Below are positions 6,218 to 57,046 of a stretch of DNA of 64,000 nt, in pieces. The stretch's first letter is position 1. The number at the start of each line of letters is the position of its first letter. The translations under genes were made by a program, and so were the position numbers. The DNA is from an uncultured bacterium (GTDB lineage Bacteria > Joyebacterota > Joyebacteria > Joyebacterales > Joyebacteraceae). The notes under the pieces were generated by a model that was given only the letters and a program-made list of their open reading frames with translations, was not told where the DNA came from and searched no databases. Location: positions 124,665-188,664 of the forward strand of contig CAZEXP010000001.1 of assembly GCA_964516845.1 (NCBI GenBank). Reading direction: 5' to 3'.

Positions 6218-7645
6218 ATGTCGTCAGAGAACACACGAGAGGACGCGTTCCGCTCGATTCCCTCCGTGGACCTCGCAATGCGCCACATCGAAGACCGGGG
6301 GCTGGCCGTTGTTGCGCCGAGACCCCTCGTGGTTCGGGCGGTTCGCCGGGCGCTGGAGCGCGCGCGGGACGGCATCGTGGCGGGTCGTCGCGAGGGCTCC
6401 GATTCGCGCGATGCGATCCTCGGACAGGTCGAGCGCGAGGTCGCTGGACTGAGGTTGGCCGGCCTGATCCCGGTGATCAACGCTACGGGCATTCTCATTC
6501 ACACGAACCTCGGCCGATCCCCTCTCGCACCGGAGGCCATCGAGGCATCGAGGCGGATCGGGAGCGCGAGTTCGAATCTGGAATTCGACCTCGTCACCGG
6601 CGAGCGAGGTCACCGCGACGCGCTCGTGCGGGACTCGCTGCGCGAACTGACGGGGGCAGAGGACGCGCTCGTCGTCAACAACAATGCGGCGGCGGTCCTG
6701 CTGGCGCTCAACACACTGGCCGTCGGGCGGGATGTCGTGGTGTCTCGGGGTGAGCTGATCGAGATCGGCGGATCGTTTCGTCTGCCGGAGGTCTTCGGTC
6801 GCGCCGGAGCCCGAATGATCGAGGTCGGAACGACCAACCGAACGACGATCGCGGACTTCGAACGTGCGTACAGTTCGCGGACAGGCGCGTTCATGAAGGC
6901 GCATTGGAGCAATTACTCGATCGAGGGATTCGTGGAGCGGGTGAGCGTTGCTGAACTCGCTGCGCTCGCGAACCGATACGGTGTTCCGGTCGTCAATGAC
7001 CTTGGCAGCGGAGCGCTGATCGATTCGGCGGAACTGGGCATCCCGCATGAGGAGACGGTAGCGGAGAGTGTGGCGGCCGGAGTGGCGGTCTCGACGTTCA
7101 GCGGCGACAAGCTCATTGGCGGTCCCCAGTGCGGGATCGCCGTGGGCGGAGTCCGAGAGATCGAGCGGATGCGAAACAACCCGCTGATGCGCGCGCTGCG
7201 TCCCGGCAAGCTCACGTTGGCGGCGCTCCAGGCGACGCTGGAGTTGTTCCTCGAGGGCGTCGCGCTGCGCCGGGTGCCCGTGCTCGCGATGGCGTCGTCG
7301 TCAGCTGATGAGATACGGACGCGTGCCGAGCGCCTCATCGAGCGCGGCGGGACGCAATTGCGGGAGTACGGAACTGCGGACGTTGTCGAGACCAGCGCGC
7401 TGATGGGTGGCGGGACGGCTCCGGAGGCGCGGATCCCGAGTTTCGCGGTCCGCTTCAGACCCGCGGCGATCTCGGCCGCACGACTGGCTGCACGGTTGAG
7501 GACAGGAGGGCGTCCCGTGGTTCCACGAACTGCGGATGACGCGGTCATCCTGGACATGCGAACGGTGCCCGCCGGGGATGAAGGGGCGCTACTCGAGGCG
7601 CTGCTCGCGGCGCTTGGGGAGAGGAACGACGATGACGGCGTCTGA
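6218..7645 (+). CDS. selA: L-seryl-tRNA(Sec) selenium transferase
   Basis: VINATGILIHTNLGRSPL, ALVVNNNAAAVLL, FMKAHWSNYSIEGF and the PLP-lysine motif STFSGDKLIGGPQCGI are all diagnostic SelA motifs. Confidence 0.85.
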   Translation: MSSENTREDAFRSIPSVDLAMRHIEDRGLAVVAPRPLVVRAVRRALERARDGIVAGRREGSDSRDAILGQVEREVAGLRLAGLIPVINATGILIHTNLGRSPLAPEAIEASRRIGSASSNLEFDLVTGERGHRDALVRDSLRELTGAEDALVVNNNAAAVLLALNTLAVGRDVVVSRGELIEIGGSFRLPEVFGRAGARMIEVGTTNRTTIADFERAYSSRTGAFMKAHWSNYSIEGFVERVSVAELAALANRYGVPVVNDLGSGALIDSAELGIPHEETVAESVAAGVAVSTFSGDKLIGGPQCGIAVGGVREIERMRNNPLMRALRPGKLTLAALQATLELFLEGVALRRVPVLAMASSSADEIRTRAERLIERGGTQLREYGTADVVETSALMGGGTAPEARIPSFAVRFRPAAISAARLAARLRTGGRPVVPRTADDAVILDMRTVPAGDEGALLEALLAALGERNDDDGV

Positions 7646-37209: not shown

Positions 37210-39365
37210 CGGGGGACGGAGCGGAGCTCGATCTCTCGATCATCATCGTCGGGTACAACAGCGCCGAGCCGCTGGCGGCGTGCCTGCGATCGCTCGCGGA
37301 GTGCCGGGACATCGTGTCTCGAGAAGTCCTCGTCGTCGACAACGCATCGGCCGACGACACAGGAGAGATGGTCCGGCGCGACTTTCCCTGGGCTGAGTAC
37401 CACGAGAATGCGGCGAACGTCGGCCTGTCGCGCGCGGTCAACCGCGGCATCAGGGCATCGCGCGGACGGCACATCCTCGTTCTGAACCCGGACATCGAGG
37501 CGCGGCCCGGCTCGCTCGACGCACTGGTGGGATTCATGGATGCCACGCCCGGGGCGGGACTCGCGGGTGCGAAACTGATCAACACGGACGGCTCGCTTCA
37601 ACTCTCGTGCAGGGCGTTCTACACGTTCTGGACGCTGCTGCTGCGGAGGACGTTCCTCGGGAAGCTGTTCCGGAGGAGCGGGGCGATCCGACGACATCTG
37701 ATGCTCGACTACGACCACGAGTCCCCGCGTGAGGTGGACTGGGTTCTCGGAGCCTGCATGCTCGTTCGGCGGGCGGCCATGGCCGACGTCGGGGCGATGG
37801 ACGAGCGGTTCTTCCTGTACTTCGAGGACGTGGACTGGTGCTACCGGATGTGGCGCGGAGGTTGGAAGGTCTGGTACGTGCCGGACGCCGTGATGGACCA
37901 TCGCCACGCGCGCGCCAGCGCTCGGCCGGGCTTGAACAAGCTGCTGATCGCGCACCTCATCTCGCTCCTGCACTTCTATGAGAAGTGGGGAGGGGTCATC
38001 TACCGGATGAAGAAACACCGACGCATCCTCTTGACGGCGTTAAGCCTTCTGGCCGACCTCGTGGCTGTCAACGCCGGGTTCATTCTCGCCTATGCGCTGC
38101 GTTCGAGTCTGCGCGGCCTGCTTACGAAACCGCTCTTCGGTCTCGGGGTCTACGACACCTTTCTTATCTTCGCGAACATCGTGTTCATCCTCGTGTTCGC
38201 ATTCTTCGGTCTCTACGGCGGTCGGCGCGACCGCGAGACGGGCGCGGATGTCGCCTTCCGCGTGACACGGGCCGCCGTCGTGGCGGGCGTCGTGCTGATG
38301 GCGAGTACGTTCCTGACCTCCACAACGGTCTACTCGCGGCTTCTCGTCGGGGCTTTCTGCGTGATCGTCGTCCTGCTCGACATGGCCCTTCGGGGGGTTA
38401 TCCGGTGGGTACAGAACCAGGCCCGCGCGGGCAGGTTTGACCTCACGCGCGTGGCTGTCGTCGGCACCGGCCCCACGGCAACGCTCCTCGCCGAGCGTAT
38501 CGCCGCCGCCCCCGAGCTCGGGTACGATCTGGCGGGTCTGGTCTCCGAGCGTCCACGGGACCCGGGAGCGGGTGACCGGCTGGCGATCCCTGTCATCGGA
38601 AGTCTCGATGAACTGCCGGACCTCATCGAGCGACAGAGGATCGAGGAAATCATCTTCGCGGAGCCGGAGCTGTCGAGCACCGAGATCGCCGATTTCCTCA
38701 TTCGCGCCCGCCGGAGCACGGTCGACGTGAAGATGGTCTCCGACCTCACGAATCTGCTGACGCAACGCGCGCGCGTCGAGGAGTTCCTCGATGTTCCGAT
38801 CGTCGCCTTCGAGCGCGAGGCGCTCCTCGGAGCGCAAGCGGGTGTCAAGCGGGTCGCCGACCTGGTCGGAGCAGCGGCCCTGCTCGTGGTGTCGAGTCCC
38901 GTGCTCGCCGTGGCGGCGCTTGTCGCCGGAGCGGGCTCGCGGCGGAGTCTGTTCTCACGCGGACAGCGTGTCGGACTTGCGGAGCGGTCATTCGCCAAGT
39001 GGGGACTTCGGGAACAGGAGCCTCCCGGCGCGCTCCGTCGCTACGTCGAGCGGCACGGCCTCTCCCGGATGCCCGAACTCCTCAACGTCATCACGGGTGA
39101 GATGAGTCTCGTCGGCCCTGCACCCCTGACGGCGTCGGAGGCAACCGGGTGTACTGCGCGCGAGCGCGTGCGCTTCGACGCACGCCCCGGCGTCACCGGA
39201 CTGGCTCAGGTCGCATCAGCGGCCCACGCGGTGGGTGACGGCGGGATGGCGCTTGACGCCTACTACGTACAGAACTGGTCGCTGGGCGGAGATGTGCGGA
39301 TCATCATGCGGTGGTGGCTTCTGTGTCTGGGTGGCCGCTGCGCTCGGCGACACGAGGATGTGTGA
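37161..39365 (+). CDS. Fusion protein: N-terminal GT2 glycosyltransferase + C-terminal polyprenyl glycosylphosphotransferase (WbaP/PglC-type bacterial sugar transferase)
   Basis: GTG 37161 after RBS gggagg. GT2 block (IIIVGYNSAEPL...VVDNASADDT...LNPDIE). Then 4-5 TM helices (MKKHRRILLTALSLLADL...). C-terminal Bac_transf motif (PELLNVITGEMSLVGPAPL). One uninterrupted reading frame. Confidence 0.75.
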   Translation: MAGVATEARAHPAKKIAGDGAELDLSIIIVGYNSAEPLAACLRSLAECRDIVSREVLVVDNASADDTGEMVRRDFPWAEYHENAANVGLSRAVNRGIRASRGRHILVLNPDIEARPGSLDALVGFMDATPGAGLAGAKLINTDGSLQLSCRAFYTFWTLLLRRTFLGKLFRRSGAIRRHLMLDYDHESPREVDWVLGACMLVRRAAMADVGAMDERFFLYFEDVDWCYRMWRGGWKVWYVPDAVMDHRHARASARPGLNKLLIAHLISLLHFYEKWGGVIYRMKKHRRILLTALSLLADLVAVNAGFILAYALRSSLRGLLTKPLFGLGVYDTFLIFANIVFILVFAFFGLYGGRRDRETGADVAFRVTRAAVVAGVVLMASTFLTSTTVYSRLLVGAFCVIVVLLDMALRGVIRWVQNQARAGRFDLTRVAVVGTGPTATLLAERIAAAPELGYDLAGLVSERPRDPGAGDRLAIPVIGSLDELPDLIERQRIEEIIFAEPELSSTEIADFLIRARRSTVDVKMVSDLTNLLTQRARVEEFLDVPIVAFEREALLGAQAGVKRVADLVGAAALLVVSSPVLAVAALVAGAGSRRSLFSRGQRVGLAERSFAKWGLREQEPPGALRRYVERHGLSRMPELLNVITGEMSLVGPAPLTASEATGCTARERVRFDARPGVTGLAQVASAAHAVGDGGMALDAYYVQNWSLGGDVRIIMRWWLLCLGGRCARRHEDV

Positions 39366-39385
39366 GCCTGACAGGAGGTACTGAT

Positions 39386-40729
39386 ATGCACCGAGGGACT
39401 ATCGCGCTCATCGCCATCATCTTGTGTCTCGCGGGCTCCGCGTCCTCCGCGGACTGGACGTCTGTGAGCTTCCCTAACAATGCCAAGATCTGGGATATGG
39501 GGATAGACGGGAGCGTTCTCTGGTTCTCCACGCAGGGACAGGGGCTGGTCGGGTACGATGACGGGAGCTGGGTGACGCACACGCACAGCGACGGAGGGAT
39601 ACGGAGCGACAGCTGGAACTACGGGCTGCTCGTGAGCTCTTCCGGCGACAAATGGGTAACCCGCGACGGGAGCGAGACGGTCGACCGTGTCAGTGACAAC
39701 GGAACCTTCTCGTACAAGGACGACGACGTCTGGACCTACTACAGCTACCCGGAGCAGCTGGCGAACAGGCGCGTCTTCTCGTCCGCCGAGGACTCCGAGG
39801 GACGAGCGTGGTTCGGCATGCGAGATGAGAATCTGAGCCGGACCGGTATCCTCGAGCTGTTCATCGACAATTCGGACACGACCTCGGCCGACGATGAGTG
39901 GTTCCACTACGACAACGTGTGGACGCCCGACTCGACGAGCTTCGGCGGCGACGACGTTCGCACGCTCATGGTCGACGATCAGGACCGGCTCTGGATCGGA
40001 TACTACGGTTCGGGGATCGACCTCTGGGAGTACGGGAACCCGCGCGTCTTCGCGGACGACAGCTGGACGCACTTCGCCGAGGAGGACGGTCTGCCCGAGG
40101 ACGACATCCACACGTTCTGGCAGGGAAGCGACGGAACGATCTGGGCCGGGACGCTTGGCGGACTGGCAGCATATGATGAGCAGAGCGGCACCTGGACGGT
40201 CGTGTCCGGCCTTCCGGGGAGCCAGGCGCGCGCCGTCTCGGAGGACGCCCAGGGCCACATCTGGGTCGGAACGAACGACGGCGTCGCGATGCTCTACGCG
40301 AACCGGGCGGTCGCCTTCACCTACACGACCGAGGACGGTCTCGCGGACGAGCAGGTTGACCACATCGCTATCGACGTGTCCTCGGGCAACGTCTGGGCCG
40401 TCACGAAGGACAACGTGGCGGATGAAACGACGTTGAACGTGTTCCACTCGGGGATCGTCGAGGGAACGGGAAAGCTGTTCGTCTATCCGAACCCCTGGCG
40501 TGAGGGAGTTTCCGAGAATCAGATACAGCTCTACGGCGCGCCCGAGGGATCGCTCGTCGAGGTCTTCGATGTGACCGGTCAGAAGATGGTCGAACTCCCG
40601 CCGTCGGAACCGTACATCTGGGATTCGCTGGACGAGTCACTCAACGAGGTTCCGAGTGGTGTCTATCTGATCCGCGTCGAAGTACCGGGAGGCGAGGCGC
40701 AGATCGTCAAGCTGGCCATCATCAGATAG
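39386..40729 (+). CDS. Secreted beta-propeller (Reg_prop-like repeats) protein with T9SS-type C-terminal sorting domain
   Basis: RBS aggagg. Signal peptide. Repeated G-x-LW/IW-x-GT-x-GL-x-YD units. C-terminus LFVYPNPW...GVYLIRVEV...IVKLAIIR resembles the Por secretion-tail domain. Confidence 0.7.
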   Translation: MHRGTIALIAIILCLAGSASSADWTSVSFPNNAKIWDMGIDGSVLWFSTQGQGLVGYDDGSWVTHTHSDGGIRSDSWNYGLLVSSSGDKWVTRDGSETVDRVSDNGTFSYKDDDVWTYYSYPEQLANRRVFSSAEDSEGRAWFGMRDENLSRTGILELFIDNSDTTSADDEWFHYDNVWTPDSTSFGGDDVRTLMVDDQDRLWIGYYGSGIDLWEYGNPRVFADDSWTHFAEEDGLPEDDIHTFWQGSDGTIWAGTLGGLAAYDEQSGTWTVVSGLPGSQARAVSEDAQGHIWVGTNDGVAMLYANRAVAFTYTTEDGLADEQVDHIAIDVSSGNVWAVTKDNVADETTLNVFHSGIVEGTGKLFVYPNPWREGVSENQIQLYGAPEGSLVEVFDVTGQKMVELPPSEPYIWDSLDESLNEVPSGVYLIRVEVPGGEAQIVKLAIIR

Positions 40730-46871: not shown

Positions 46872-47818
46872 CGACCGTCAGCGTGGTCATTCCCACGTTT
46901 GGCAAGCGTCCGGTCCTCGAACGCACGCTGGAGTCCCTGCGTGTCCAGACGTACCCGACCGAGCTGACAGAGATCGTCGTGGTTGACGACCACTCGGACG
47001 ACGATACGTCGGAGTACCTCCGGAGCCTCTCGCTTCCGCAGCGCCTTGTCGCGATCCGGCACGATGAGAATCTCGGGCGCGCGGCGGCGCGCAACACGGG
47101 CGTCCGCTCGGCCACGGGAGAGCTGATCGTGTTCGTGGATGACGACATGCTCTGCGAGCCCGATCTCATCGAACAGCACGTGGTCTTCCACCAGGATCAC
47201 CCACGGTCTGTCGCTATCGGCGACGCGGTGCAGGCCCCCGAACTCGGCCACTCGACGGCGCTTTCGTACCTCGATGAGATGGGCGTCCACAAACACGAGT
47301 CCGGCTCGCGGGTGCCGGCGCGGTACTTCGTCACGAACAACAGCTCCGTCGAACGCCAATCCATACTCGACGTCGGTCTCTTCGACGAGAGCTTCCGCAA
47401 CTACGGATTCGAGGATACGGAGCTGGCTTTCCGGCTCGAGGACAACGCGGGTCTCTCGACCTGGTACTGCGGGGAGGCGCGCGCCCTCCACGTGCATCCG
47501 CAGTCGTTCGACGACATCCTCGACAAGAGGATCGAGAACGCGCCGCCGCTGCGACACCTCCTCGCGAAGCACCCGGATCGGGCGGGGGAGATGATGGTGG
47601 ACGTCCTGCTGCCCGTTGCCGCCGGTGACTCGGCCGCGCTCAGGGTTCGGAAGCTCCTGGTGGCCGTCGCCACGAACCGGCTCTTCTACCGGACGGTCCG
47701 CGCCGTTGCCAGGACCATCTGGCTTCGTGGACTCTCGCTCAAGGTGATGACCTACCTGATCGCCTGCCAGTACCGCGCGGGGCTCGCGCGGCCCCCACAT
47801 ACTCAGGAACGCCCCTGA
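46868..47818 (+). CDS. Glycosyltransferase family 2
   Basis: GTG 46868 with RBS ggaggaa in GTGA overlap. VSVVIPTFGKRPVLERTLESL...VVDDHSDDDT...VFVDDDM. Confidence 0.75.
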   Translation: MTTVSVVIPTFGKRPVLERTLESLRVQTYPTELTEIVVVDDHSDDDTSEYLRSLSLPQRLVAIRHDENLGRAAARNTGVRSATGELIVFVDDDMLCEPDLIEQHVVFHQDHPRSVAIGDAVQAPELGHSTALSYLDEMGVHKHESGSRVPARYFVTNNSSVERQSILDVGLFDESFRNYGFEDTELAFRLEDNAGLSTWYCGEARALHVHPQSFDDILDKRIENAPPLRHLLAKHPDRAGEMMVDVLLPVAAGDSAALRVRKLLVAVATNRLFYRTVRAVARTIWLRGLSLKVMTYLIACQYRAGLARPPHTQERP

Positions 47819-48055
47819 AAGCGGCCCCTTCGCGGCGTTTCAACACGTGCGCGACGGTTGGGGCGCGCGATCGACGATTGTAACAACCCCGGTGGCACAC
47901 TTCCTGCTTCCTACAGGGAACTGCACAGCAGATGACACGCATACGTTCCCTGCAGTGCGCGTGAGCAGTCACCAGGTCGTGGGCTGATCCCCAATACCCA
48001 GGTCATGAGTCGTACGCCACCTGTTGCACGCCTCAGCGGGGAACGCTTTTTCTCA

Positions 48056-48091
48056 GCCGCCCCCGGCTCTCTACGAGAGCCGGGGGCGGCC
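48056..48091 (+). terminator. 16-bp perfect GC hairpin (GCCGCCCCCGGCTCTC-tacg-GAGAGCCGGGGGCGGC), putative terminator of the glycan operon
   Basis: Read in sequence. Followed by cTTTCC and then directly by the BMC promoter. Confidence 0.45.
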
Positions 48092-48098
48092 CTTTCCA

Positions 48099-48128
48099 TT
48101 GACAGTCGTCACAAGCCTCTGATAGACT
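48099..48128 (+). promoter_or_regulatory. Sigma70-type promoter TTGACA-N18-(TGa)TAGACT upstream of the BMC operon
   Basis: Consensus -35, extended -10 TG and a TAGACT -10. The same cTGATAGACTGC motif recurs at 59317. Confidence 0.45.
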
Positions 48129-48205
48129 GCCCGGGTTCGCGGCAGGTGCCCATGCCGGTGGTGTTTACGCATACCCCGGGGGGGCGATTCCGGCGCTGTG
48201 GAGGC

Positions 48206-48880
48206 ATGTTCGTGAGCGACGTCACACGGATCGCGGATGAGGTGTTGAGGCGGCTTCAGCGGGAGGCGGGCAACCCGCCTCGCGCGCAGGAGCGTCTCGG
48301 GGAAGCGGGAGTCTCGATCCCCGTCGCAGTCAGCGCCCGTCACGCCCACGTCTCGCGGACCGTACTCGATCGTCTCTACGGGGAGGGCTACGCGCTCTCG
48401 AAGAAGAGCGACCTCGGACAGCCCGGGCAGTTCTCAGCCGAGGAGACGGTCACGGTCGTCGGACGCTCCCTGCGCGCCATCGAGGGCGTCCGCATCCTGG
48501 GTCCCGTGAGAACGTACACGCAGGTCGAGATGTCGCGTGCGGACGCCGTCCGTCTGGGCATCGACCCGCCGATCCGCCGCTCCGGTGATCTCGCGGGGAG
48601 TGCGCCGTTGACGCTGGTCGGCCCGCACGGCGCCGTCACCCTCAAGGAGGGTGGTATCCGCGCGACGCGCCATCTCCACATGACCCCGCGCGACGCGGAG
48701 GTTCATCGCGTAGCCGGCGGCGAGCTGGTCCGCGTCCGGTTCAGCGGCCCCGCGGCGCTCGTCCTCGAGAACGTGATGGTCAACATTTCCGAGGACGGGG
48801 CTCTCGAGCTTCATCTTGACACGGACAATGCGGGCGCGGCGGACGTGCGCGGCCCGATGATGGTGAGCATTCTGAAGTAA
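48206..48880 (+). CDS. pduL: Phosphate propanoyl/acyltransferase PduL-type (PTAC) with N-terminal amphipathic extension
   Basis: Two PduL repeats with VSARHAHVS and [11 protein letters not shown] histidine motifs. Start ATG 48206 or GTG 48212; the upstream part of the track ORF contains the terminator and promoter. Confidence 0.8.
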
Positions 48881-48995
48881 CGAAAGGCGTCACCACCCGC
48901 GCGGGTGGAGCGTCCCAGAGACGAGTGGGTCAGGGACGCCGGCAGCGAGACGCAAACGAGAGGCCCGCAACCGGGCCGGACGAGGGGGTGCGCAA

Positions 48996-49265
48996 TTGCC
49001 GGGTACGGCACTTGGAATGGTCGAGACCCGAGGTGTGATCGGTCTCATTGAGGCAGCCGACGCGATGGTGAAGACCGCCAACGTGACCCTCACGCGCTAT
49101 GAGCGGACAGGTGGCGGGTACGTCGCCATCTTCGTTCGGGGTGACGTGGGCGCTGTGAAGGCGGCGGTCGCCGCCGGAGTCGCTGCCGCGACCAAGGTCG
49201 GGGAACTGGTGTCACAGCACATCATCCCGGCCCCGCACGAATCGCTCGAGGAGATTCTGCTGTAG
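48996..49265 (+). CDS. BMC-H shell protein (PduA/EutM/CcmK-type)
   Basis: [28 protein letters not shown]...[12 protein letters not shown] is the canonical Pfam BMC domain. TTG start with RBS gaggggg. Confidence 0.85.
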
Positions 49266-49360
49266 TCTGACGGGAAGAACACAACGGCACTGGAAACGTG
49301 TGTCGCCATGGGTCCGCAACGGAGCCCGGGGCGACCGAACGCGAGACGCGGGAGGAGAAC

Positions 49361-49651
49361 ATGGGCGAGGCCCTCGGAATGATCGAGACCAGAGGTTTCG
49401 TCGGGATGGTCGAAGCATCCGACGCCATGGTCAAGGCTGCCAAGGTCAAGCTGGTTGGATACGAGAAGGTCGGAGGCGGCTACGTGACCGCCATGGTGCG
49501 CGGTGATGTGGCCGCGGTGCGCGCTGCGGTCGACGCGGGAACCGCGGCGGCCAGCAAGGTCGGGGAACTCATCTCCACGCACGTCATCCCCAGTCCGCAC
49601 ACGAGCCTTGAAGACGTCCTGCCGATCGGCAAGACCGCGAAGTCGAAGTAG
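49361..49651 (+). CDS. BMC-H shell protein, second paralog
   Basis: ATG 49361 with RBS gggaggag. [31 protein letters not shown]...[12 protein letters not shown]. Confidence 0.85.
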
Positions 49652-49652
49652 C

Positions 49653-49943
49653 ATGAACATCGGCCGCGTGGTCGGGACGGTTGTCTCGACACAGAAGGAC
49701 GAGAAGCTGGTCGGTACGAAGCTTCAGATCGTCAAGCAGCTGGGGCTCGACTGCGGCGAGACCGGTTCGTTCGTTGTCGCGATCGACGCCGTGGGCGCAG
49801 GACAGGGCGAGGTGGTCCTGTACGCAAGCGGCAGCTCGGCGCGGCAGACGCCGATCACCAAGGACCGGCCGGCTGACGCCGTGATCATGGCCATCGTGGA
49901 CTCGATCGAGGTCGACGGCGCCACCACGTACGAGAAGAAGTAG
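49653..49943 (+). CDS. BMC-P vertex protein (EutN/PduN/CcmL family), copy 1
   Basis: MNIGRVVGTVVSTQKDEKLVGTKLQIV...AVGAGQGEVVL. 96 aa. Confidence 0.85.
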   Translation: MNIGRVVGTVVSTQKDEKLVGTKLQIVKQLGLDCGETGSFVVAIDAVGAGQGEVVLYASGSSARQTPITKDRPADAVIMAIVDSIEVDGATTYEKK

Positions 49944-49993
49944 CGCGCGACGCATCGGGAGCCACCGACGCCTCCTCGGGGAGTTCTTCGCTC

Positions 49994-51418
49994 ATGCCCA
50001 TCGACAGGATAGGGATCGAGTCAATCGTCGAACGCGTCCTCGGAGAGATTGAGGGGGAACGCGCCGCGAGCCCTCCGCCGAAGGCCTTCGACGGGCGTGG
50101 GATACTGCCCGACATCGATGCGGCGACGCTGGCGGCGCTGAGCGCGTTCCGCGAGTTCTCGGAGATACCGCTCGAGGAGCGGCGCGACTTCATCTCCGCA
50201 ATGAGGGCGACGATCCTCGAGCACATCGACGAGCTCTCACAGCTCGCCGTCCAGGAGACCGGGCTCGGGCGCGTGGAGGACAAGGTACGGAAGAACCGGC
50301 TTGCGGCCCGCGCGACCCCCGGGGTCGAGGATCTGAGGGCACACGCCTTCTCCGGCGATCACGGTCTGACGCTCGTCGAGCGGGCGCCCTACGGCGTCAT
50401 CGGCTCGATCACTCCGTCCACCAATCCGTCCGAGACCATTATCAACAACGCCATCAGCATGGTGGCGGCCGGCAACACGGTCGTCTTCAACCCGCACCCG
50501 AGCGCGCGGGTGGTCTCGCTGACCACGATCGACCTGCTCAATCGAGCCATCGCGCAGGCGGGCGGCCCCAGGGCTCTCCTTTTCGCGCCGGTCGATCCAT
50601 CGGTGACATCGGCGCAGGAGCTCATGGCGCATCCGAGTATCCGACTGCTCGTCGTGACGGGCGGACCGGGCGTGGTGAGGGCCGCCATGCAGTCGGGAAA
50701 GCGCGTCGTCGCCGCCGGGCCGGGCAACCCGCCCGTCGTCGTCGATTCGACAGCCGACATCGAGAAGGCCGGCCGCGACATCGTCGCGGGGGCGACTCTC
50801 GACAACAACATCGTCTGCATCGCCGAGAAGGAGATCATCGTCGAGCGCGACGTGGCGGCGCTTCTCAAGCAGTCGCTCGCCGGGGCGGGAGGCGTCGAGA
50901 TCAAGGGACAGTCGCTCGCCCGGCTCATGGACGTTCTCATCGCGGAGGAACACGGTCCGCGACAGCCCGCAACGATGAATCGTGCGTTCATCGGCAAAAA
51001 CATCGAGATCATCCTCGACGCCGCCGGACTCTCATGCCCGCAGGGCGCCCGGATGGCGTTCTTCGAGGCGGACGAGGATCATCCGCTGGTCTGGACGGAA
51101 CAGATGCTCCCGGTGCTTCCCCTCGTCACCGCGCCGAGCGCGAAGGCGGCCATCGAGATGGCAAGGCGCTATGAGCGCGATTGTCGCCACACGGCCGTCA
51201 TGCACTCGAAGAACATCGAGCACATGTCGCTCATGGCGCGGGTGATGGACTGCTCCATCTTCGTGAAGAACGGGCCCTCGTACGCCGGGCTGGGGTTTGG
51301 CGGCGAGGGATTCACGACGTTCACGATCGCGAGCCCGACGGGCGAGGGGCTGACGTCGGCACGCACCTTTACGCGCGAGCGCAGGTGCACACTTGTCGAC
51401 TACTTCAGAATCGTCTAG
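49994..51418 (+). CDS. CoA-acylating aldehyde dehydrogenase (PduP/EutE-like) with N-terminal extension
   Basis: ALDH fold with the catalytic Cys region LDNNIVCIAEKE. N-terminal 40 aa precede the ALDH core. Confidence 0.85.
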   Translation: MPIDRIGIESIVERVLGEIEGERAASPPPKAFDGRGILPDIDAATLAALSAFREFSEIPLEERRDFISAMRATILEHIDELSQLAVQETGLGRVEDKVRKNRLAARATPGVEDLRAHAFSGDHGLTLVERAPYGVIGSITPSTNPSETIINNAISMVAAGNTVVFNPHPSARVVSLTTIDLLNRAIAQAGGPRALLFAPVDPSVTSAQELMAHPSIRLLVVTGGPGVVRAAMQSGKRVVAAGPGNPPVVVDSTADIEKAGRDIVAGATLDNNIVCIAEKEIIVERDVAALLKQSLAGAGGVEIKGQSLARLMDVLIAEEHGPRQPATMNRAFIGKNIEIILDAAGLSCPQGARMAFFEADEDHPLVWTEQMLPVLPLVTAPSAKAAIEMARRYERDCRHTAVMHSKNIEHMSLMARVMDCSIFVKNGPSYAGLGFGGEGFTTFTIASPTGEGLTSARTFTRERRCTLVDYFRIV

Positions 51419-51431
51419 GGGACATGCGACC

Positions 51432-52760
51432 GTGAGCGCGAACCTCAGTGATGCGATACGGGCGGCAGGTGTCGTGGGAGCCGGAGGCGGCGGTTTCCCG
51501 ACCCACGTCAAGGCCGAGGGCAAGGCCGATACGCTCCTCGCCAACGGAGCCGAGTGCGAGCCGCTCCTGAAGGCCGACAGCGCGATGATGAGGGCGGAGC
51601 CCGCGCGCGTGCTCGCCGGTCTTACGCTCATGCGGGACGCCGTCGGCGCCGAGCGCGCCGTCCTCGCCGTGAAACGCAAGAACCTCGACGCTCTTTCCGG
51701 ACTCCGGGAGGCGGCCGAGGCGGCGGAGGGCGTCGAACTCCTCGTCCTGGACAATGTCTATCCCGCGGGCGACGAGTTTCTGCTGGTCTTCGAGGCGACG
51801 GGACGCGTTGTCCCCGAGGGCGGGCTCCCGCTCGATGTCGGTGTCGTCGTGAACAACGTCACCACGCTGGCGCAGGTCGCTGACGCTCGCGAGGGACGCC
51901 CCGTCACGCACCGGTTCGTCACGGTGCAGGGCGAGGTGAACAGTCCCGTGACCTTGTGGGCGCCCGTCGGAACGCAGCTCTCGGCACTGCTCGATGCTGC
52001 CGGGGGACCGAAACTCGACGAGTTCTCGGTCATCGCCGGCGGTCCGATGATGGGACGCCTGGCCGACCTGACCGAACCAACCGACAAGATGCTGGCCGGG
52101 ATCATCGTGCTCCGAAACTCGCATCATCTCATCACGGTGAGGAAGGAGACCGCCGGTCACGCCCTGAAGATCGCTCGGGCCGCGTGCTGCCAGTGCATGG
52201 CGTGCACGGAGCTGTGCCCGAGGGCGCTTCTCGGCCACGACCTCCAGCCGCATCGAACCGTGCGCGCGATCCAGTACTCGATGGAGGCCTCCGAGCACGC
52301 GCACGTCACATCGGCGTATCTCTGTTGCGAATGCGGCATGTGCGAGCTCTTCGCGTGCCCGCTCGAGATCAGGCCGAGGAGGATCCTCTCGGAGCTCAAG
52401 GCCGAGCTCAAGCGGCGGGGAGTCGAGAACCCGCATCGGAGACGGGAACTCGACGCCGACGCGGTCCGGCAGTACCGACAGATCCCTTCGGCGCGGCTGG
52501 TCCAGCGTCTCGGCCTGTCTCAGTATGACGGTCCCGCCGAGGCCATCGGCGACGCGCTCCAGGCGCGGCGAGTGCGCCTGCTGATGCGCCAGCACATCGG
52601 CGCGCCGGCGGTGCCCGTCGTCGAACAGGGAGCGAGCGTGCTCGCCGGCGATGTCGTGGGTGAGATTCCTGCAGGAGCCCTTGGCGCACGCGTACACGCC
52701 AGTATCAGCGGCGAGGTGACGCGAGTCAGCACAACGGAAGTGGTCGTCGAGCGTCGATAG
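51432..52760 (+). CDS. PduS/RnfC-family Fe-S flavoprotein (Complex1_51K-like NAD(H)/FMN module + two 4Fe-4S motifs + C-terminal barrel-sandwich domain)
   Basis: GAGGGGFPTHVK...ANGAECEPLLKAD, CCQCMACTELCP and CCECGMCELFACP. GTG 51432 is 9 nt after RBS aggggac. Confidence 0.75.
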   Translation: MSANLSDAIRAAGVVGAGGGGFPTHVKAEGKADTLLANGAECEPLLKADSAMMRAEPARVLAGLTLMRDAVGAERAVLAVKRKNLDALSGLREAAEAAEGVELLVLDNVYPAGDEFLLVFEATGRVVPEGGLPLDVGVVVNNVTTLAQVADAREGRPVTHRFVTVQGEVNSPVTLWAPVGTQLSALLDAAGGPKLDEFSVIAGGPMMGRLADLTEPTDKMLAGIIVLRNSHHLITVRKETAGHALKIARAACCQCMACTELCPRALLGHDLQPHRTVRAIQYSMEASEHAHVTSAYLCCECGMCELFACPLEIRPRRILSELKAELKRRGVENPHRRRELDADAVRQYRQIPSARLVQRLGLSQYDGPAEAIGDALQARRVRLLMRQHIGAPAVPVVEQGASVLAGDVVGEIPAGALGARVHASISGEVTRVSTTEVVVERR

Positions 52761-52832
52761 CGCGCACCGCACGCGTCGACCTCGTAGAGGACACGACGTC
52801 ATGGATGACGCGACGTCGGAGAGGATGAACGA

Positions 52833-53423
52833 TTGGCGAAGAAGCGTTCTCAAATGGACGCCCCGAAGCGCGGACGACTCGAGGCGATCGCGATCATAGA
52901 GACCATCAGCATCGCCGTCGGGATCCAGATCACCGACGCGATGGCCAAGATGGCCAGCGTCGAGATCCTCGAATCGACTCCGATCTGTCCCGGCAAGTAC
53001 ATGGTGCTGGTGGCAGGCGGCGTCTCCGATGTGGAGTCCTCGCTGAAGCGTGGCATCGAGATCGGCGGGGACGTCATCGCCGACACCCTGTCGATACCTC
53101 ACGTCCATCCGGACATCTTCCCGGCCATCCTCGGCGCCGTCGACGTGGGCGAGCTGGGGGCGCTCGGCGTTGTCGAGACGTTCACGGTCGCCTCCTCGAT
53201 CCTCGCGGCTGATGCCGCGGCGAAGGCCGCACGCGTTCGTATCCTCGAGATTCGTGTCGCGAAGGGACTCGGCGGCAAGGGCTTCTTCACGATGACGGGC
53301 GAGGTGCACGAGGTGGAGGCCGCTATGGAGGCGGCTCTTCAGGTCACGAAGGAATCCGGGACGCTCGTGCGCAGCGTCGTCATCCCACGACCGCACCCGA
53401 GTCTAGCGGCGACGGTCCTGTAG
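52833..53423 (+). CDS. Tandem-domain BMC shell protein (BMC-T)
   Basis: 196 aa with two successive BMC-fold halves (AIAIIETISIAVGI... and LGALGVVETFTVASSILAADAAAKAARV...). TTG start with RBS ggagagga. Confidence 0.75.
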   Translation: MAKKRSQMDAPKRGRLEAIAIIETISIAVGIQITDAMAKMASVEILESTPICPGKYMVLVAGGVSDVESSLKRGIEIGGDVIADTLSIPHVHPDIFPAILGAVDVGELGALGVVETFTVASSILAADAAAKAARVRILEIRVAKGLGGKGFFTMTGEVHEVEAAMEAALQVTKESGTLVRSVVIPRPHPSLAATVL

Positions 53424-53455
53424 CGCGTCGCCACGCCTGCGGCGAAGGAGGAGCG

Positions 53456-53749
53456 GTGCATTTCGGCAGGGTCATCGGCTCGGTCTGGGCGACTCAGAAG
53501 GTCCCGACGCTCAAGGGCGCGCGGATGCTGATCGTCCAGCCTCTGACGCATACGCTCGAGGAGAAAGGGCAACCGCTCGTAGCCGTCGACACCGTCGAGG
53601 CTGCGCCCGGACAGATCATCTACTTCGTGATGTCGCGCGAGGCGTGCAAGGCGATGGAGGAGCGCTTCAACCCGGTCGACGCGGCGATCGTCGGCATCGT
53701 CGATGAGATATCACTGGCCGATGCAGCGATCGACGGGGGGGACGTCTGA
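53456..53749 (+). CDS. BMC-P vertex protein (EutN/CcmL family), copy 2
   Basis: GTG start with RBS ggaggag. (M)HFGRVIGSVWATQKVPTLKGARMLIV. Confidence 0.8.
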   Translation: MHFGRVIGSVWATQKVPTLKGARMLIVQPLTHTLEEKGQPLVAVDTVEAAPGQIIYFVMSREACKAMEERFNPVDAAIVGIVDEISLADAAIDGGDV

Positions 53750-53750
53750 C

Positions 53751-54023
53751 ATGTTTCTCGCACGCGTGATAGGGGAACTCGTCTCGACGATCAAGCATGA
53801 GTCGCTCCACGCCCAAACGCTGCTGATCATCGACCGGATCGATCTCGAGGACCATCAGACCGGCGCCACCCTGATAGCAGTCGATTCGGTGTCCGCGGGC
53901 GTAGGGGACACCGTGCTCGTCGTGGACGAGGGCGGCTCCGCGGCCATCGTCACCGGGCTTGCCGACCCGCCGATCAGAACGGTCATCGTCGGCATCGTCG
54001 ATCACTTCGACGTGGAGGTGTGA
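53751..54023 (+). CDS. BMC-P vertex protein (EutN/CcmL family), copy 3
   Basis: MFLARVIGELVSTIKHESLHAQTLLII...AVDSVSAGVGDTVLV. Confidence 0.8.
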   Translation: MFLARVIGELVSTIKHESLHAQTLLIIDRIDLEDHQTGATLIAVDSVSAGVGDTVLVVDEGGSAAIVTGLADPPIRTVIVGIVDHFDVEV

Positions 54024-54027
54024 CGTC

Positions 54028-54828
54028 GTGCTGAGCGAGTTCGAAGCGCGCCGCGATATCGTCGAGATCGGCCGTCGGCTCTGGCAACGCGGATACGTTG
54101 CCTCGAACGACGGCAACATCAGCGCGCGCCTCGACGGCGAACGGATACTCGTGACGCCCTCGGGCCTTTCGAAAGGCTTTCTCTCCACGACCGATCTCGT
54201 CGTTGTCACGCCCGAAGGCAGGAAGCTCTCGGGAGAGCGCGAGCCCACCTCGGAACTCCCGCTTCACCTCTCGGTCTACTCCCGTCGCGCCGACGTCGCC
54301 GGTATCGTGCACGCCCATCCACCGGTCGCGACCGGGTACGCCGTTGCTCGTGTCCCACTTGCGCAGTGCATTCTTCCCGAGGTCGTGCTGACGCTCGGGT
54401 CGGTTCCGACCGCGGACTACGCGACGCCTTCTACCTCCGCGGTTGCCGAGAGCATCGCGCGCTACGTCGACGACTACAGCGCCATACTGCTGGCGAACCA
54501 CGGGGCGCTCGCGCTCGGCAAGACTCTCTACGAAGCGTATTTCCGGATGGAGACGATCGAACACTTCGCTCAGATCGCCCTCACCGCGCGTCAGCTGGGA
54601 GGAGCATCGCCGCTGACACCGGGTGAGATCGAGGACCTCGCGGTGATCCGGGAGAAACTCGGCGTGCGAGTGCCGGAGGACAGCTGTCTGAGCTGTGGCG
54701 CGTGCACCGGCTCCGACGGCGCCGATGCCGGAACAGCGCCGTCCCGGACCGCGTCCGGCCAGGCCAGCCTCGACGAATCGCTGGTTCAGGAGGTCATGGC
54801 GGAGATCGCCCGACGTCGTTCCGGCTGA
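54028..54828 (+). CDS. Class II aldolase/adducin-family enzyme (fuculose/rhamnulose-phosphate aldolase-like) with C-terminal extension
   Basis: GTG 54028 with RBS ggagg 9 nt upstream. GNISAR, VHAHPP and LLANHGAL are class II aldolase metal and active-site motifs. About 50 extra C-terminal residues. Confidence 0.8.
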   Translation: MLSEFEARRDIVEIGRRLWQRGYVASNDGNISARLDGERILVTPSGLSKGFLSTTDLVVVTPEGRKLSGEREPTSELPLHLSVYSRRADVAGIVHAHPPVATGYAVARVPLAQCILPEVVLTLGSVPTADYATPSTSAVAESIARYVDDYSAILLANHGALALGKTLYEAYFRMETIEHFAQIALTARQLGGASPLTPGEIEDLAVIREKLGVRVPEDSCLSCGACTGSDGADAGTAPSRTASGQASLDESLVQEVMAEIARRRSG

Positions 54829-54866
54829 AAAAGGACCCGCTCCGAGCGGGCCCGGGAGGATGACGA

Positions 54867-55763
54867 ATGACAAAGCGCGGATGTCTCTGGGGATGGTTGG
54901 CGGGAGCGGTGACGCTGCTCCTGATATTCCTCGTCACGATGATCATGATAGAAGCACTGCTCGGAGGAGACGGTGTGCGTCTGCCCTCGTACGGCGCGCA
55001 CGTCGGCCTCGTCCGGATCGAAGGCGTCATCAGCGACTCGAGGAGCGTCATCGACGACCTGCGATTCTTTGAGAAGGCCGGCGGGATCAAGGCTCTGGTG
55101 ATCCGAATCGACAGTCCGGGTGGTGGGGTGGCGGCAACGCAGGAGATCGTCGCCGAGATCGACCGCATCCGAGAGAATGGGATGCCGGTGGTGGCCTCGA
55201 TGGGATCTGTCGCGGCATCAGGCGGATACTACATCGCGTGCTCGGCCGACAGCATCTTCGCCAACGCAGGGACGCTGACTGGCAGCATCGGTGTCATCAT
55301 GAGCTTCACGAATCTTGAGAGCCTGTTCGCCAAACTGGGTATGTCTTTTGACGTTGTCAAGAGCGGTGAGTACAAGGACATCGGCTCCTGGAGCCGCGAG
55401 ATGACCCCGGCGGAACGGGCGCTCCTCCAGGCCACGGTTGACGATATCCACGCGCAGTTCGTCGAGGCGGTCTCCCAGGGACGCGACCTTTCCCTCGAGG
55501 AGGTTGCATCCTTCTCCGATGGCCGCATCTTCTCGGGCCGTGAAGCTCTGTCCCGGAAGCTCGTCGACGGGCTCGGAACGCTCGACGACGCTGTGACGGC
55601 AGCCGGCAGAATGGGGGGTATCGGGGGAGAACCGCGTATCCTGGAGCCGGTCAAGCGCGAACGGTTGACGTTTTTTGACCTGCTGACGGGGAGCCTGGAG
55701 CGCATCCTCCCTGAGACGGCGGTCCCGAGCGGCGCCCTCTACCTGTACAGACCCTCCAAGTGA
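54867..55763 (+). CDS. sppA: Signal peptide peptidase SppA (36K type)
   Basis: N-terminal TM helix. LVIRIDSPGGGV and catalytic GSVAASGGYYIAC / KSGEYKD motifs. Confidence 0.85.
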   Translation: MTKRGCLWGWLAGAVTLLLIFLVTMIMIEALLGGDGVRLPSYGAHVGLVRIEGVISDSRSVIDDLRFFEKAGGIKALVIRIDSPGGGVAATQEIVAEIDRIRENGMPVVASMGSVAASGGYYIACSADSIFANAGTLTGSIGVIMSFTNLESLFAKLGMSFDVVKSGEYKDIGSWSREMTPAERALLQATVDDIHAQFVEAVSQGRDLSLEEVASFSDGRIFSGREALSRKLVDGLGTLDDAVTAAGRMGGIGGEPRILEPVKRERLTFFDLLTGSLERILPETAVPSGALYLYRPSK

Positions 55764-55778
55764 CCTTCAGAAAAGCAT

Positions 55779-55807
55779 TTGACAGCCTCGGGCCGGCTTG
55801 CTAGGAT
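55779..55807 (+). promoter_or_regulatory. Sigma70-type promoter TTGACA-N17-TAGGAT
   Basis: Hexamers read in sequence. The next start codon is about 340 nt downstream. Confidence 0.45.
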
Positions 55808-55814
55808 GTGTCTT

Positions 55815-56150
55815 GAGGTTGTCGGCCTCGCGCCGGCAGTGCAGTCTCCGCAGCGACGCTCGAACAGCCGCCGTACCCGGTAAGGTGCGGGCGGCGACCG
55901 ACTTCGGCCGATGCATCTGCTGGTCGGCACCAGGAGAGGCGATCGCGCGGAAAGACGAGGCAAGATTCTGCAATCCGACAGCTCTCCAGGAGCGAAAGCC
56001 GGGGAAACCTGAGCGGCCTCCCGCATGCAGGCGAGGAGGCTCCGTACGGAGAGCAACCGATGACGCGAAGCACCGCGACGATGCACGACGGCGCAGCACA
56101 CAGCGTTGGAGCGCGATCGCGTGCGGGCTCCACGACGGAGGTTGTGGGTT
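55815..56150 (+). other. Long (~335 nt) GC-rich, structured 5' leader or unassigned ncRNA upstream of the HU-like gene
   Basis: No credible CDS. ORFs here on both strands are Arg/Ala-rich artefacts. Several local hairpins. Confidence 0.25.
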
Positions 56151-56507
56151 ATGACGAAAGCGGACCTTGTCGATCGCGTTGCCAGCACAACCGGACTGAC
56201 GAAGCGTGACGTCGCCGTTGTCGTTGAGGCGCTCCTTGACTCGATCAAAGACGCGCTCGCCGATCACCGGCACATCGAGATTCGGGAGTTCGGGACGTTC
56301 AAAGTGAAGCAACGCAAAGCCAGCATGAAGTACAACCCGAGAGACCGCTCGCAGAAGGTAGTCGTACCTGCGAAGATGGTCCCGGTGTTCAAGCCGAGCA
56401 AGTTCCTGAAGGAGAAGGTTAACTGGCCTGATGAGCGGGGGATCAATCCCCCCGAAGGGGGAGCAGCATCCCCGGAACCGGCCGTCGATAGCAATCCGGC
56501 GGCATGA
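56151..56507 (+). CDS. HU/IHF-family DNA-binding protein with ~25-aa C-terminal tail
   Basis: MTKADLVDRVASTTGLTKRDVAVVVEALLDSI...IREFGTFKVKQRKA...NPRD is the HU/IHF fold. ATG 56151. Confidence 0.85.
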   Translation: MTKADLVDRVASTTGLTKRDVAVVVEALLDSIKDALADHRHIEIREFGTFKVKQRKASMKYNPRDRSQKVVVPAKMVPVFKPSKFLKEKVNWPDERGINPPEGGAASPEPAVDSNPAA

Positions 56508-56515
56508 GGAGGAGT

Positions 56516-56611
56516 ATGCCGAGTCTGAAGAAGAAACGCCGCAAGAAGATGGCGAAGCACAAGCTCAAGAAGAGGCGCAGGAAGGACCGTCACAAGAAGC
56601 GTGTGCGCTAG
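56516..56611 (+). CDS. Unannotated 31-aa highly basic protein, candidate ribosomal protein bS22 (AURKAIP1/mS38-like family)
   Basis: atgccgagtctgaagaagaaacgccgc... encodes MPSLKKKRRKKMAKHKLKKRRRKDRHKKRVR. Preceded by aggagg. Not in the ORF track (below length cutoff). Resembles mycobacterial bS22 [33 protein letters not shown]. Confidence 0.55.
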   Translation: MPSLKKKRRKKMAKHKLKKRRRKDRHKKRVR

Positions 56612-56644
56612 TCCCGCCGGCGGGAATCACCGTCTGGAGGTTCC

Positions 56645-57046
56645 ATGACTGACAAGAAGCAAGGCAGCTGGGAGGGGCGGGAACGCAGGCAGTCGGCTCG
56701 CGTCAGTGCCCAGGTCGCGCTGCAGCTCGGCGGGCTTGACGATTCGATCCCGGGTGAGTCTCTGACGACCGAGAGCATCAATGTCGGCGCCGAAGGTGTG
56801 TACTGTCACGTCAGTCACTTCATCGCACCGCTGACGAAGCTCCAGCTGACGATGGTCCTCCCGATCAGGGACAAGAAGGGACAGTCGCGCAGCGAGGTCC
56901 TCAAGACGGATGCAGTGGTGGTCCGTTGCCAGCCTGCCGGGAGCGAGAGCAGTGGCTACCGGATCGCGTGTTTCTTCACGGGCCTCGAGCCCGCGGCACG
57001 CGAGGTTCTGCAGGACTACGTGCGGCAGCACGTGGCCCCCGCCTAG
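56645..57046 (+). CDS. PilZ-domain (c-di-GMP-binding) protein
   Basis: RBS ggagg. RxxxR motif (RERRQSAR) and D/NxSxxG-like motif (ESINVGAEG). Confidence 0.65.
   Translation: MTDKKQGSWEGRERRQSARVSAQVALQLGGLDDSIPGESLTTESINVGAEGVYCHVSHFIAPLTKLQLTMVLPIRDKKGQSRSEVLKTDAVVVRCQPAGSESSGYRIACFFTGLEPAAREVLQDYVRQHVAPA

Follow-up and report, generated by a model that had tools for sequence, protein, structure and literature searches.

A 64-kb stretch of DNA from an uncultured bacterium (the window) carries, on its plus strand between positions 48005 and 54828, a block of bacterial microcompartment (BMC) genes that probably constitutes one operon for a catabolic metabolosome of Candidatus Eisenbacteria, with a FucA-like, metal-dependent class II aldolase as its aldehyde-generating enzyme. 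A Pfam scan found ten open reading frames (ORFs) in this block, each above its gathering score, in the order PduL, BMC-H, BMC-H, BMC-P, acylating aldehyde dehydrogenase (AldDh), PduS-like flavoprotein, PduT-like BMC-T, BMC-P, BMC-P and class II aldolase. The E-values of the ten domain matches ranged from 1e-23 to 1e-61, which excludes chance. An earlier, sequence-only reading of this DNA had named the same ten genes, and all of them were present on the plus strand where it had placed them; its description of the block as an aldolase-signature BMC locus with a triplet of BMC-P genes, AldDh and PduL also stood. The block shows general features of a metabolosome, namely clustered BMC-H and BMC-P shell genes together with a CoA-acylating AldDh and a phosphotransacylase that have predicted encapsulation peptides. 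A further such feature, an alcohol dehydrogenase for recycling NAD+, was not found in the window; incomplete enzyme cores are known for many published BMC types (PMC4207490).

Extent and transcription of the operon

The ten genes are tightly spaced and form a single operon. Intergenic gaps are mostly 1–50 nt, the largest being 115 nt (PduL to the first BMC-H) and 93 nt (PduS to BMC-T). The upstream glycosyltransferase gene stops at 47818, and a hairpin terminator at 48056–48090 on the plus strand (a 16-bp stem with 14 G–C pairs and a T-rich tail) closes that upstream operon. Just 3′ of the terminator, at 48099–48128 on the plus strand, lies a sigma-70-like promoter (TTGACA-18-TAGACT with an extended −10 TG; 10/12 matches), which begins at the coordinate, 48099, from which the sequence-only reading had started its promoter-led block. 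Across five Eisenbacteria loci (the window, L003, L083, L085 and L088; loci of other genomes are given as L numbers), the elements TTGACAG and TGnTAGnCT do not vary, and the sequence that flanks them does. Such invariance of the −35 and extended −10 elements amid variable sequence gives good comparative support for a real promoter, as the sequence-only reading had supposed. The sequence CGTTTCC, just upstream of the −35 element, is also kept across the divergent Eisenbacteria loci (window 48092–48128 and equivalents). We identified no regulator gene or operator-like repeat for this promoter region in the window or for its equivalents in L003, L083, L085 and L088, and an Rfam scan of 47700–56700 gave no match to a regulatory RNA family.

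The starts of several genes could be refined. The ORF list had PduL beginning at 48005, but the first 200 nt of that ORF span the terminator and the promoter, and we therefore predict a start at ATG 48206 (or GTG 48212), behind a GGAGG. PduS most likely starts at GTG 51432, judging from the alignment and lengths of its orthologues and from the sequence itself. The starts of BMC-T at 52854 and of the aldolase at 54028 agree with database gene calls, and the aldolase read from 54028 is identical to database protein P0001 (266 aa).

The 3′ end of the operon is uncertain. The aldolase stop is followed by a G+C-rich hairpin that has no T-run on the plus strand (54833–54853) and then by the ribosome-binding site and start codon of a gene for an S49 signal-peptide peptidase (SppA). 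This gene always comes next after the aldolase in Eisenbacteria (window 54867–55763, L003 10807–11700 and L085 9840–10730), and in L003 and L085 there is a 4-nt overlap between it and the aldolase stop. Because of this overlap, and because the hairpin in the window has no T-run, read-through is possible, and SppA may share a transcript with the BMC operon.

Shell proteins and enzymes

The shell set consists of two BMC-H proteins, one tandem BMC-T and three divergent BMC-P proteins, all encoded on the plus strand. The shell ORFs picked out by the sequence-only reading all scored above the Pfam gathering scores of PF00936 or PF03319. The two hexamer-forming BMC-H proteins are 64% identical to each other; the first (48996–49265; 89 aa) scored 101 bits with PF00936, and the second (49361–49651; 96 aa) scored 104.4 bits with PF00936 and 138.7 bits with the EutM model (cutoff 133). 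Among the pentamer-forming BMC-P proteins, pairwise identity is 29–40%, and two of the three genes are adjacent. BMC-P 1 stands alone (49653–49943; 96 aa; PF03319, 97.7 bits) and is 33% and 40% identical to BMC-P 2 and BMC-P 3, respectively, which adjoin each other (53456–53749, 97 aa, 96.3 bits; and 53751–54023, 90 aa, 82.9 bits) and are given here as called in the database. The PduT-like BMC-T (52854–53423) has two PF00936 domains (132.5 bits). It aligns end to end with the PduT structures 3PAC and 3N79 and keeps the cysteine of the ICPGK motif, which in PduT ligates the 4Fe-4S cluster of the pore. The pattern of the three pentamers corresponds to the 'BMC-P triplet' that Sutter et al. 2021 described for many BMC types (PMC8217296).

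The four enzymes are likewise encoded on the plus strand. The PduL-type phosphotransacylase (48206–48880) scored 207.9 bits with PF06130 (PTAC) and 216.2 bits with NF011652. The AldDh (49994–51418; Aldedh, 126.4 bits) is exactly database entry P0125 and matched the PduP/EutE-type model PRK15398/NF011927 with 631.7 bits. The PduS/RnfC-like flavoprotein (51432–52760; PF01512, 146.5 bits; PF10531, PF13534 and PF13375) combines a Complex1_51K NADH/FMN domain with the motif GGGGFPT, an SLBB domain, a Fer4_17 domain and a C-terminal RnfC_N barrel, and its two four-cysteine motifs for 4Fe-4S clusters are invariant in orthologues. The signature enzyme of the operon is the class II aldolase (54028–54828; PF00596, 163.9 bits). 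Its catalytic Glu and Zn ligands (E76, H95, H97 and H158) do not vary among orthologues and align with those of E. coli FucA (E73, H92, H94 and H155).

Conservation and position indicate that PduL, AldDh and the aldolase carry encapsulation peptides. PduL has a putative N-terminal peptide followed by a linker, and the N-terminal amphipathic segment of AldDh includes IESIVERVLGEI, after which comes a variable linker. The N-terminal segments of both proteins are conserved among orthologues and their linkers are not; the AldDh segment and the catalytic cysteine (Cys275) are conserved in 14 orthologues. Beyond its core, the aldolase has a CxxCGxC motif, then a low-complexity linker and finally a helix-like candidate peptide at the C terminus, LVQEVMAEIARR, and this tail is kept in orthologues. 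Such a layout matches the published architecture of BMC aldolases, in which an encapsulation peptide of ~17 aa comes after a linker of 23–81 aa (PMC4594438).

Host lineage and inheritance

We scanned species-representative genomes with an aldolase alignment and mapped the ten proteins of the window onto the best 80 loci. Shell genes adjoin the aldolase in about 65 of these 80, which, together with the tail kept in orthologues, upholds the link between this aldolase and BMCs drawn by the sequence-only reading. The ten-gene order is identical in L003 and L011. The window from 44 to 64 kb is collinear with L003, a metagenome-assembled genome (MAG) named Candidatus Eisenbacteria, the shared order being GT87, GT4, GT2, the ten BMC genes, SppA, HU, PilZ, a FadL-like outer-membrane protein, TPR, DUF4837 and EF-P. 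The same order recurs in L083/L084, in L085 (GCA_014728245.1, with proteins named Candidatus Eisenbacteria) and in L088. The flanking proteins are 35–75% identical to those of L003, and the BMC proteins of L003, L083/L084, L085 and L088 are, where computed, 54–87% identical to those of the window. Judged by synteny with named MAGs, the host belongs to Eisenbacteria, which NCBI lists as a candidate phylum. Eisenbacteria share a root with Latescibacterota in a phylogenomic study (PMC11323493), and Latescibacteria are described as belonging to the superphylum FCB (Fibrobacteres–Chlorobi–Bacteroidetes; PMC4454575). The genome lies outside the Planctomycetes–Verrucomicrobia–Chlamydiae group, and the FCB-type markers to which the sequence-only reading pointed are in keeping with these relationships.

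Because the ten genes, their order and their flanks are the same in several Eisenbacteria MAGs, the locus has been passed down vertically as part of the core of this lineage and is no recent import. The window has ~65% G+C throughout, and the composition of the block, including its codon-position values (GC and GC3), is that of the surrounding genes. We rejected horizontal transfer on these grounds, the composition being like that of the surroundings and the flanks being conserved. A decaying, non-functional remnant or a recently acquired island would account for a core that is incomplete by the classical paradigm, without alcohol dehydrogenase, kinase or regulator; however, all ten ORFs are intact with conserved catalytic residues, the promoter is conserved, base composition does not set the block apart, and at least five divergent Eisenbacteria genomes retain both the operon and its flanks. 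We therefore regard a remnant or island as highly improbable.

Proposed pathway and electron export

In the metabolosome that we propose, a ketose-1-phosphate made in the cytosol, most likely L-fuculose-1-phosphate and/or L-rhamnulose-1-phosphate, would enter the shell and be split by the aldolase into dihydroxyacetone phosphate and an aldehyde, which would be L-lactaldehyde. AldDh would then convert the aldehyde, with NAD+ and CoA, to an acyl-CoA (lactyl-CoA), forming NADH. PduL would exchange CoA for phosphate, so that CoA is recycled within the shell and the acyl-phosphate leaves it, to be used outside for making ATP by a kinase encoded elsewhere. NADH would be re-oxidised by PduS, and its electrons would exit by way of the Fe-S cluster that sits in the pore of PduT. 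We assign this role to PduS because the operon has no alcohol dehydrogenase and because PduS adjoins a PduT with a pore cysteine.

The PduS–PduT pair resembles that of Salmonella and Citrobacter in the full-length alignment of BMC-T (3N79 and 3PAC), the pore cysteine and the set of PduS domains. Unlike in that pair, no B12-dependent enzyme is present in the window locus, and the role of PduS as a cobalamin reductase is therefore not applicable here. That PduS and PduT form an electron conduit in B12-independent BMCs was hypothesized by Axen et al. 2014 (PMC4207490), and in the window locus NADH may plausibly be recycled in this way.

The aldolase has a further feature that could bear on redox chemistry. 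Directly after its core and before the linker is a C-x2-C-G-x-C motif (54682–54705; about residues 219–226), which is nearly universal among the closest aldolase homologues (seen in L003, L005, L011, L013, L075 and L082–L085) and may be a metal or Fe-S site. Among the first 85 loci, the motif was found only where PduS/PduT is adjacent. A strict tie between the two was nevertheless rejected, as L088 has PduS/PduT but lacks the motif, and in L090 the motif is found on an aldolase that stands alone, without shell genes within 10 kb. In a rough neighbour-joining tree, aldolases with the motif fall at three separate points, and looser clusters of three cysteines are found in further BMC aldolases, including those of loci without PduS. 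We found no mention of an aldolase-tail cysteine motif in the papers on BMC aldolases that we read.

A bolder proposal, which we put forward tentatively and think doubtful as a whole, is that the Eisenbacteria aldolase metabolosome has dispensed with alcohol dehydrogenase altogether. Electrons would pass from NADH to encapsulated PduS, from there to the 4Fe-4S cluster of the PduT pore and on to an acceptor in the cytosol; the aldehyde would be oxidised in full, with none lost as diol, and the C-x2-C-G-x-C motif of the aldolase would provide the redox module with an additional metal or Fe-S site. To our knowledge, no experiment has yet demonstrated the recycling of NAD+ by export through a PduS/PduT pore for any BMC.

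Substrate of the aldolase

The sequence-only reading had proposed degradation of L-fucose and L-rhamnose through lactaldehyde. We probed the substrate context of the aldolase loci with E. coli Fuc and Rha proteins. Aldolase homologues that have neither tail nor shell genes, at 49–50% identity, adjoin a RhaB-like kinase (L034 and L056) or FucI with an FGGY kinase (L053, in which FucI is 67% identical to E. coli FucI). BMC-linked relatives also occur with such genes, RhaA and RhaB being found in L044 and L066 and RhaB in L013 and L071. In the rough neighbour-joining tree, tail-less and BMC aldolases are intermixed, on a long branch from E. coli FucA. From the gene context of these relatives, we infer that this aldolase clade would cleave L-rhamnulose-1-phosphate or L-fuculose-1-phosphate, and fucose or rhamnose appears to be the most likely substrate of the window locus. 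For Latescibacteria, a fucose/rhamnose BMC was proposed in 2015 (PMC4454575); a search for literature on the sugar metabolism of Eisenbacteria found nothing useful.

Several observations weigh against this interpretation of the operon. The 64-kb window yielded no isomerase, kinase or transporter for sugars and no regulator, acetate kinase or alcohol dehydrogenase, and none of these genes lies within 10 kb in L003, L083, L085 or L088 either; in this lineage, the substrate therefore lacks local support. The absence check combined Pfam searches of the window ORFs that passed a codon-composition filter (ORF 7536–9290 was left out) with six-frame tblastn of the whole window, for which the E. coli Fuc and Rha proteins and Latescibacterota AckA served as queries. 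The Pfam-scanned ORFs and tblastn with the Fuc and Rha queries revealed no fucI/fucK, rhaA/rhaB, lactaldehyde dehydrogenase or DeoR in the 64-kb window. Among the Pfam-scanned window ORFs there was no match to the Fe-ADH, Zn-ADH or Ldh families, to PF02502 (RpiB-like) or to PF00871 (acetate kinase), and tblastn of the window with FucO and with AckA was empty. The statement of the sequence-only reading that the block contains no acetate kinase, lactaldehyde reductase or regulator can thus be extended to the whole window; of its fucose/rhamnose proposal, the part that stands is drawn from the genes around relatives, and no gene of the window adds to it.

The aldolase itself also leaves room for other sugars. 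It scored below all NCBIfam equivalog cutoffs, the best being OtnC (135.9 versus 250 bits), followed by FucA (111.8; cutoff 264) and ribulose-1-phosphate aldolase (107.8 bits). Its matches to solved structures, 6VOQ/6VOP ('Aldolase') and the fuculose phosphate aldolases 4C24/4C25 and 6BTD, were about equal, at 86–97 bits. Named relatives of the AldDh among the best 120 came from Eisenbacteria, Thermoanaerobaculaceae, Aureabacteria and Atribacterota, the last of which is again a point on the opposing side, and the AldDh of the MIC7 type of BMC has been placed next to SPU3, on an acetaldehyde-linked branch (Sutter 2021, PMC8217296). As for encapsulation, the candidate peptides of AldDh and the aldolase lie near the background median in hydrophobic moment, and only that of PduL stands out, its value of 0.94 being the 99th-percentile background value. 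The recycling of NADH by PduS/PduT, too, is not demonstrated here.

Much of this evidence would also fit an aldolase metabolosome for another ketose-1-phosphate, such as 5-deoxyribulose-1-phosphate, D-ribulose-1-phosphate or methylthioribulose-1-phosphate, which would serve the salvage of by-products of nucleosides or S-adenosylmethionine, yield acetaldehyde, glycolaldehyde or a related aldehyde, and be SPU-like in function. The aldolase is equally far from fuculose phosphate aldolases and other class II structures, and from the FucA, OtnC and ribulose-1-phosphate aldolase models; the literature files Atribacterota BMC loci under SPU types; and a Latescibacteria class II aldolase locus with an RpiB-like isomerase was grouped as 'SPU-like' (Axen 2014, PMC4207490). 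The closeness of MIC7 AldDh to SPU3 and the lack of deoxyhexose genes near the window operon favour this alternative as well. However, the closest homologues with informative context, at 49–50% identity, are in rhamnose/fucose operons, several BMC-linked relatives carry RhaA/RhaB, and RpiB, DeoC and nucleoside phosphorylase were not found among the Pfam-scanned window ORFs. We consider a different ketose-1-phosphate, the chief alternative, possible but unlikely, and retain cleavage of a deoxyhexose-derived ketose-1-phosphate to lactaldehyde as the preferred reading.

Comparison with known BMC types

With the PVM type, named for Planctomycetes and Verrucomicrobia, the locus shares a class II aldolase (PF00596) as signature enzyme, with a putative C-terminal encapsulation peptide, and the proposed chemistry from lactaldehyde to lactyl-CoA and lactyl-phosphate (PVM as summarised in PMC4207490 and PMC8217296). 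PVM loci as defined by Axen 2014 have, besides the aldolase, a DeoR regulator, acetate kinase and an Ldh-type dehydrogenase, and are almost confined to Planctomycetes and Verrucomicrobia (PMC4207490). Unlike these, the window locus has no acetate kinase, Ldh-type dehydrogenase or DeoR, contains PduS/PduT and comes from another phylum. With the PVM-like type of the same study it shares the aldolase, but it has no DeoR and has more BMC-P (three) than BMC-H genes (two). The sequence-only reading had classed the locus as PVM-like and had taken three pentamers with aldolase, AldDh and PduL as the PVM signature. The BMC-P triplet is not specific to PVM, however, being common to SPU, HO, FRAG, ACI and MIC types (PMC8217296).

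A genuine PVM or PVM-like organelle would still be conceivable if acetate kinase, a lactaldehyde-reducing dehydrogenase and DeoR were encoded elsewhere in the genome, but we judge this distinctly improbable. The three PVM genes are absent from four other Eisenbacteria loci as well as from the window, and PduS/PduT is present. No Planctomycetes or Verrucomicrobia occurred among the named AldDh relatives in the best 120 or among the best 80 aldolase loci, and tblastn of the aldolase against plasmids yielded no planctomycetal or verrucomicrobial locus. Eisenbacteria BMCs, moreover, are filed under MIC7 in the Sutter 2021 catalogue (PMC8217296). We do not file the locus as PVM because three PVM features that we tested for, acetate kinase, Ldh-type dehydrogenase and DeoR, were not found, and the class assigned by the sequence-only reading has accordingly been dropped.

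Among published types, the SPU-like type and MIC7/MIC4 come nearest to the window locus. Its enzyme set matches best that of the SPU-like locus from Latescibacteria single cells (Axen 2014, PMC4207490), where shell genes likewise accompany AldDh, PduL, PduS and a class II aldolase. Unlike the window locus, the published locus adds an RpiB-like isomerase and acetate kinase. In the Latescibacterota loci that we examined (L007, L008, L019 and L089), the order is PduL, BMC-H, BMC-P, AldDh, BMC-P, BMC-P, aldolase and AckA; PduS/PduT is absent, and AckA lies 3′ of the aldolase, directly so in L007 and L008. We made three further observations on these loci. A 494-aa protein without a Pfam match, encoded between the PduL and BMC-H genes (L007 3564–5048; L089 5563–7047), may be a lineage-specific cargo or scaffold. 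An upstream ORF extension of PduL (L019 6085–6897; L007 2700–3365), with a putative start codon, has a cysteine-rich CxDCxLC before a helix that resembles an encapsulation peptide. In L019 (11870–16699), the BMC aldolase is followed by a sulfatase, a major facilitator superfamily transporter, acetate kinase and an enolase-superfamily (MR_MLE) enzyme, a context that hints at the use of sulfated deoxy-sugar polysaccharides.

The MIC7 type (Sutter 2021, PMC8217296, Supplementary Data 2) resembles the window locus in its Latescibacteria/Eisenbacteria hosts, its AldDh with an N-terminal peptide, its two BMC-H proteins and its BMC-P triplet. A BMC-T with a pore cysteine that adjoins a PduS homologue is present in two of the six catalogued MIC7 loci. 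Compared by description, MIC7 differs in having AldDh only, whereas the window locus also has PduL and an aldolase with a candidate peptide. The MIC4 type of the same study shares an AldDh with an N-terminal peptide, PTAC, a PF00596 aldolase, the BMC-P triplet and PduS/PduT with a pore cysteine; it occurs in several FCB phyla (PMC8217296). It differs from the window locus, which has no acetate kinase and another gene order. L006 and L014, which also carry a DeoR-like gene, fit the MIC4 description, as does L012, although without PduS/PduT; protein identity of these loci to the window is 36–51%, and 67–69% for BMC-H. An order fitting MIC4 (P-P-P ... PduS-T-PduL-AldDh-H-aldolase-AckA) was found in KSB1, Acidobacteriota and Ignavibacteriota. 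The order of a Moorella locus fits the MUF3 description, and many Vicinamibacterales loci, with aldolase-H-P-P-P, fit that of ACI. Taken by function, the window locus works like an aldolase metabolosome of the PVM/MIC4 type; by family, it belongs with the catalogued Eisenbacteria/Latescibacteria type and is not a new kind of BMC.

Neighbouring genes

Immediately upstream of the BMC operon is a polysaccharide-biosynthesis cluster of ~28 kb (19236–47818), which contains many GT2, GT4, GT9 and GT87 glycosyltransferases, DegT, FemAB-like and YfhO-like proteins, a Polysacc_synt flippase-like protein and a pair of radical SAM/SPASM and DUF362 proteins. Its last four genes (FemAB-like, GT87, GT4 and GT2) are syntenic in other Eisenbacteria loci. 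Within this cluster, 39311–40729 encodes a protein with two-component-regulator propeller repeats, whose Por_Secre_tail match (19.9 bits; cutoff 27) corresponds to the C-terminal sorting domain of the type IX secretion system that the sequence-only reading had counted as an FCB marker; as a marker it is weak, since the score is below threshold.

Downstream, a small, very basic ORF (56504–56611, plus strand), MRRSMPSLKKKRRKKMAKHKLKKRRRKDRHKKRVR, lies between the HU and PilZ genes, and L083, L085 and L088 have a 31-aa gene call in the corresponding position. This ORF may resemble ribosomal protein bS22, as the sequence-only reading had suggested. A flavin reductase gene (PF01613) stands between the small basic ORF and PilZ in L083 (12349–12924), L085 (11353–11904) and L088 (12317–12868); it is missing from that place in the window and, by the ORF list, in L003. 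Near the other end of the window, a gene for the selenocysteine synthase SelA (6218–7645) is followed by an unannotated 584-aa ORF (7536–9290), and the lineage probably uses selenocysteine.

Discussion

Aldolase BMCs have been reported in FCB-related phyla since 2014–2015, so that the taxonomic surprise is small and the locus is otherwise an ordinary annotation result. It does provide a clean and complete example, bounded by a promoter, of an aldolase-type metabolosome in Candidatus Eisenbacteria, and it identifies the operon as a conserved, syntenic core feature of this uncultured lineage. The picture of MIC7 is also sharpened: the catalogue has AldDh only, whereas the Eisenbacteria loci carry aldolase, AldDh, PduL and PduS/PduT. 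Besides this mismatch, what deserves notice is the design, with PduS/PduT and without alcohol dehydrogenase, which is conserved across Eisenbacteria, and the cysteine motif that is conserved in the tail of the aldolase. If PduS/PduT does take the place of alcohol dehydrogenase, the export of electrons across a BMC shell could conveniently be tested with this compact operon of ten genes.

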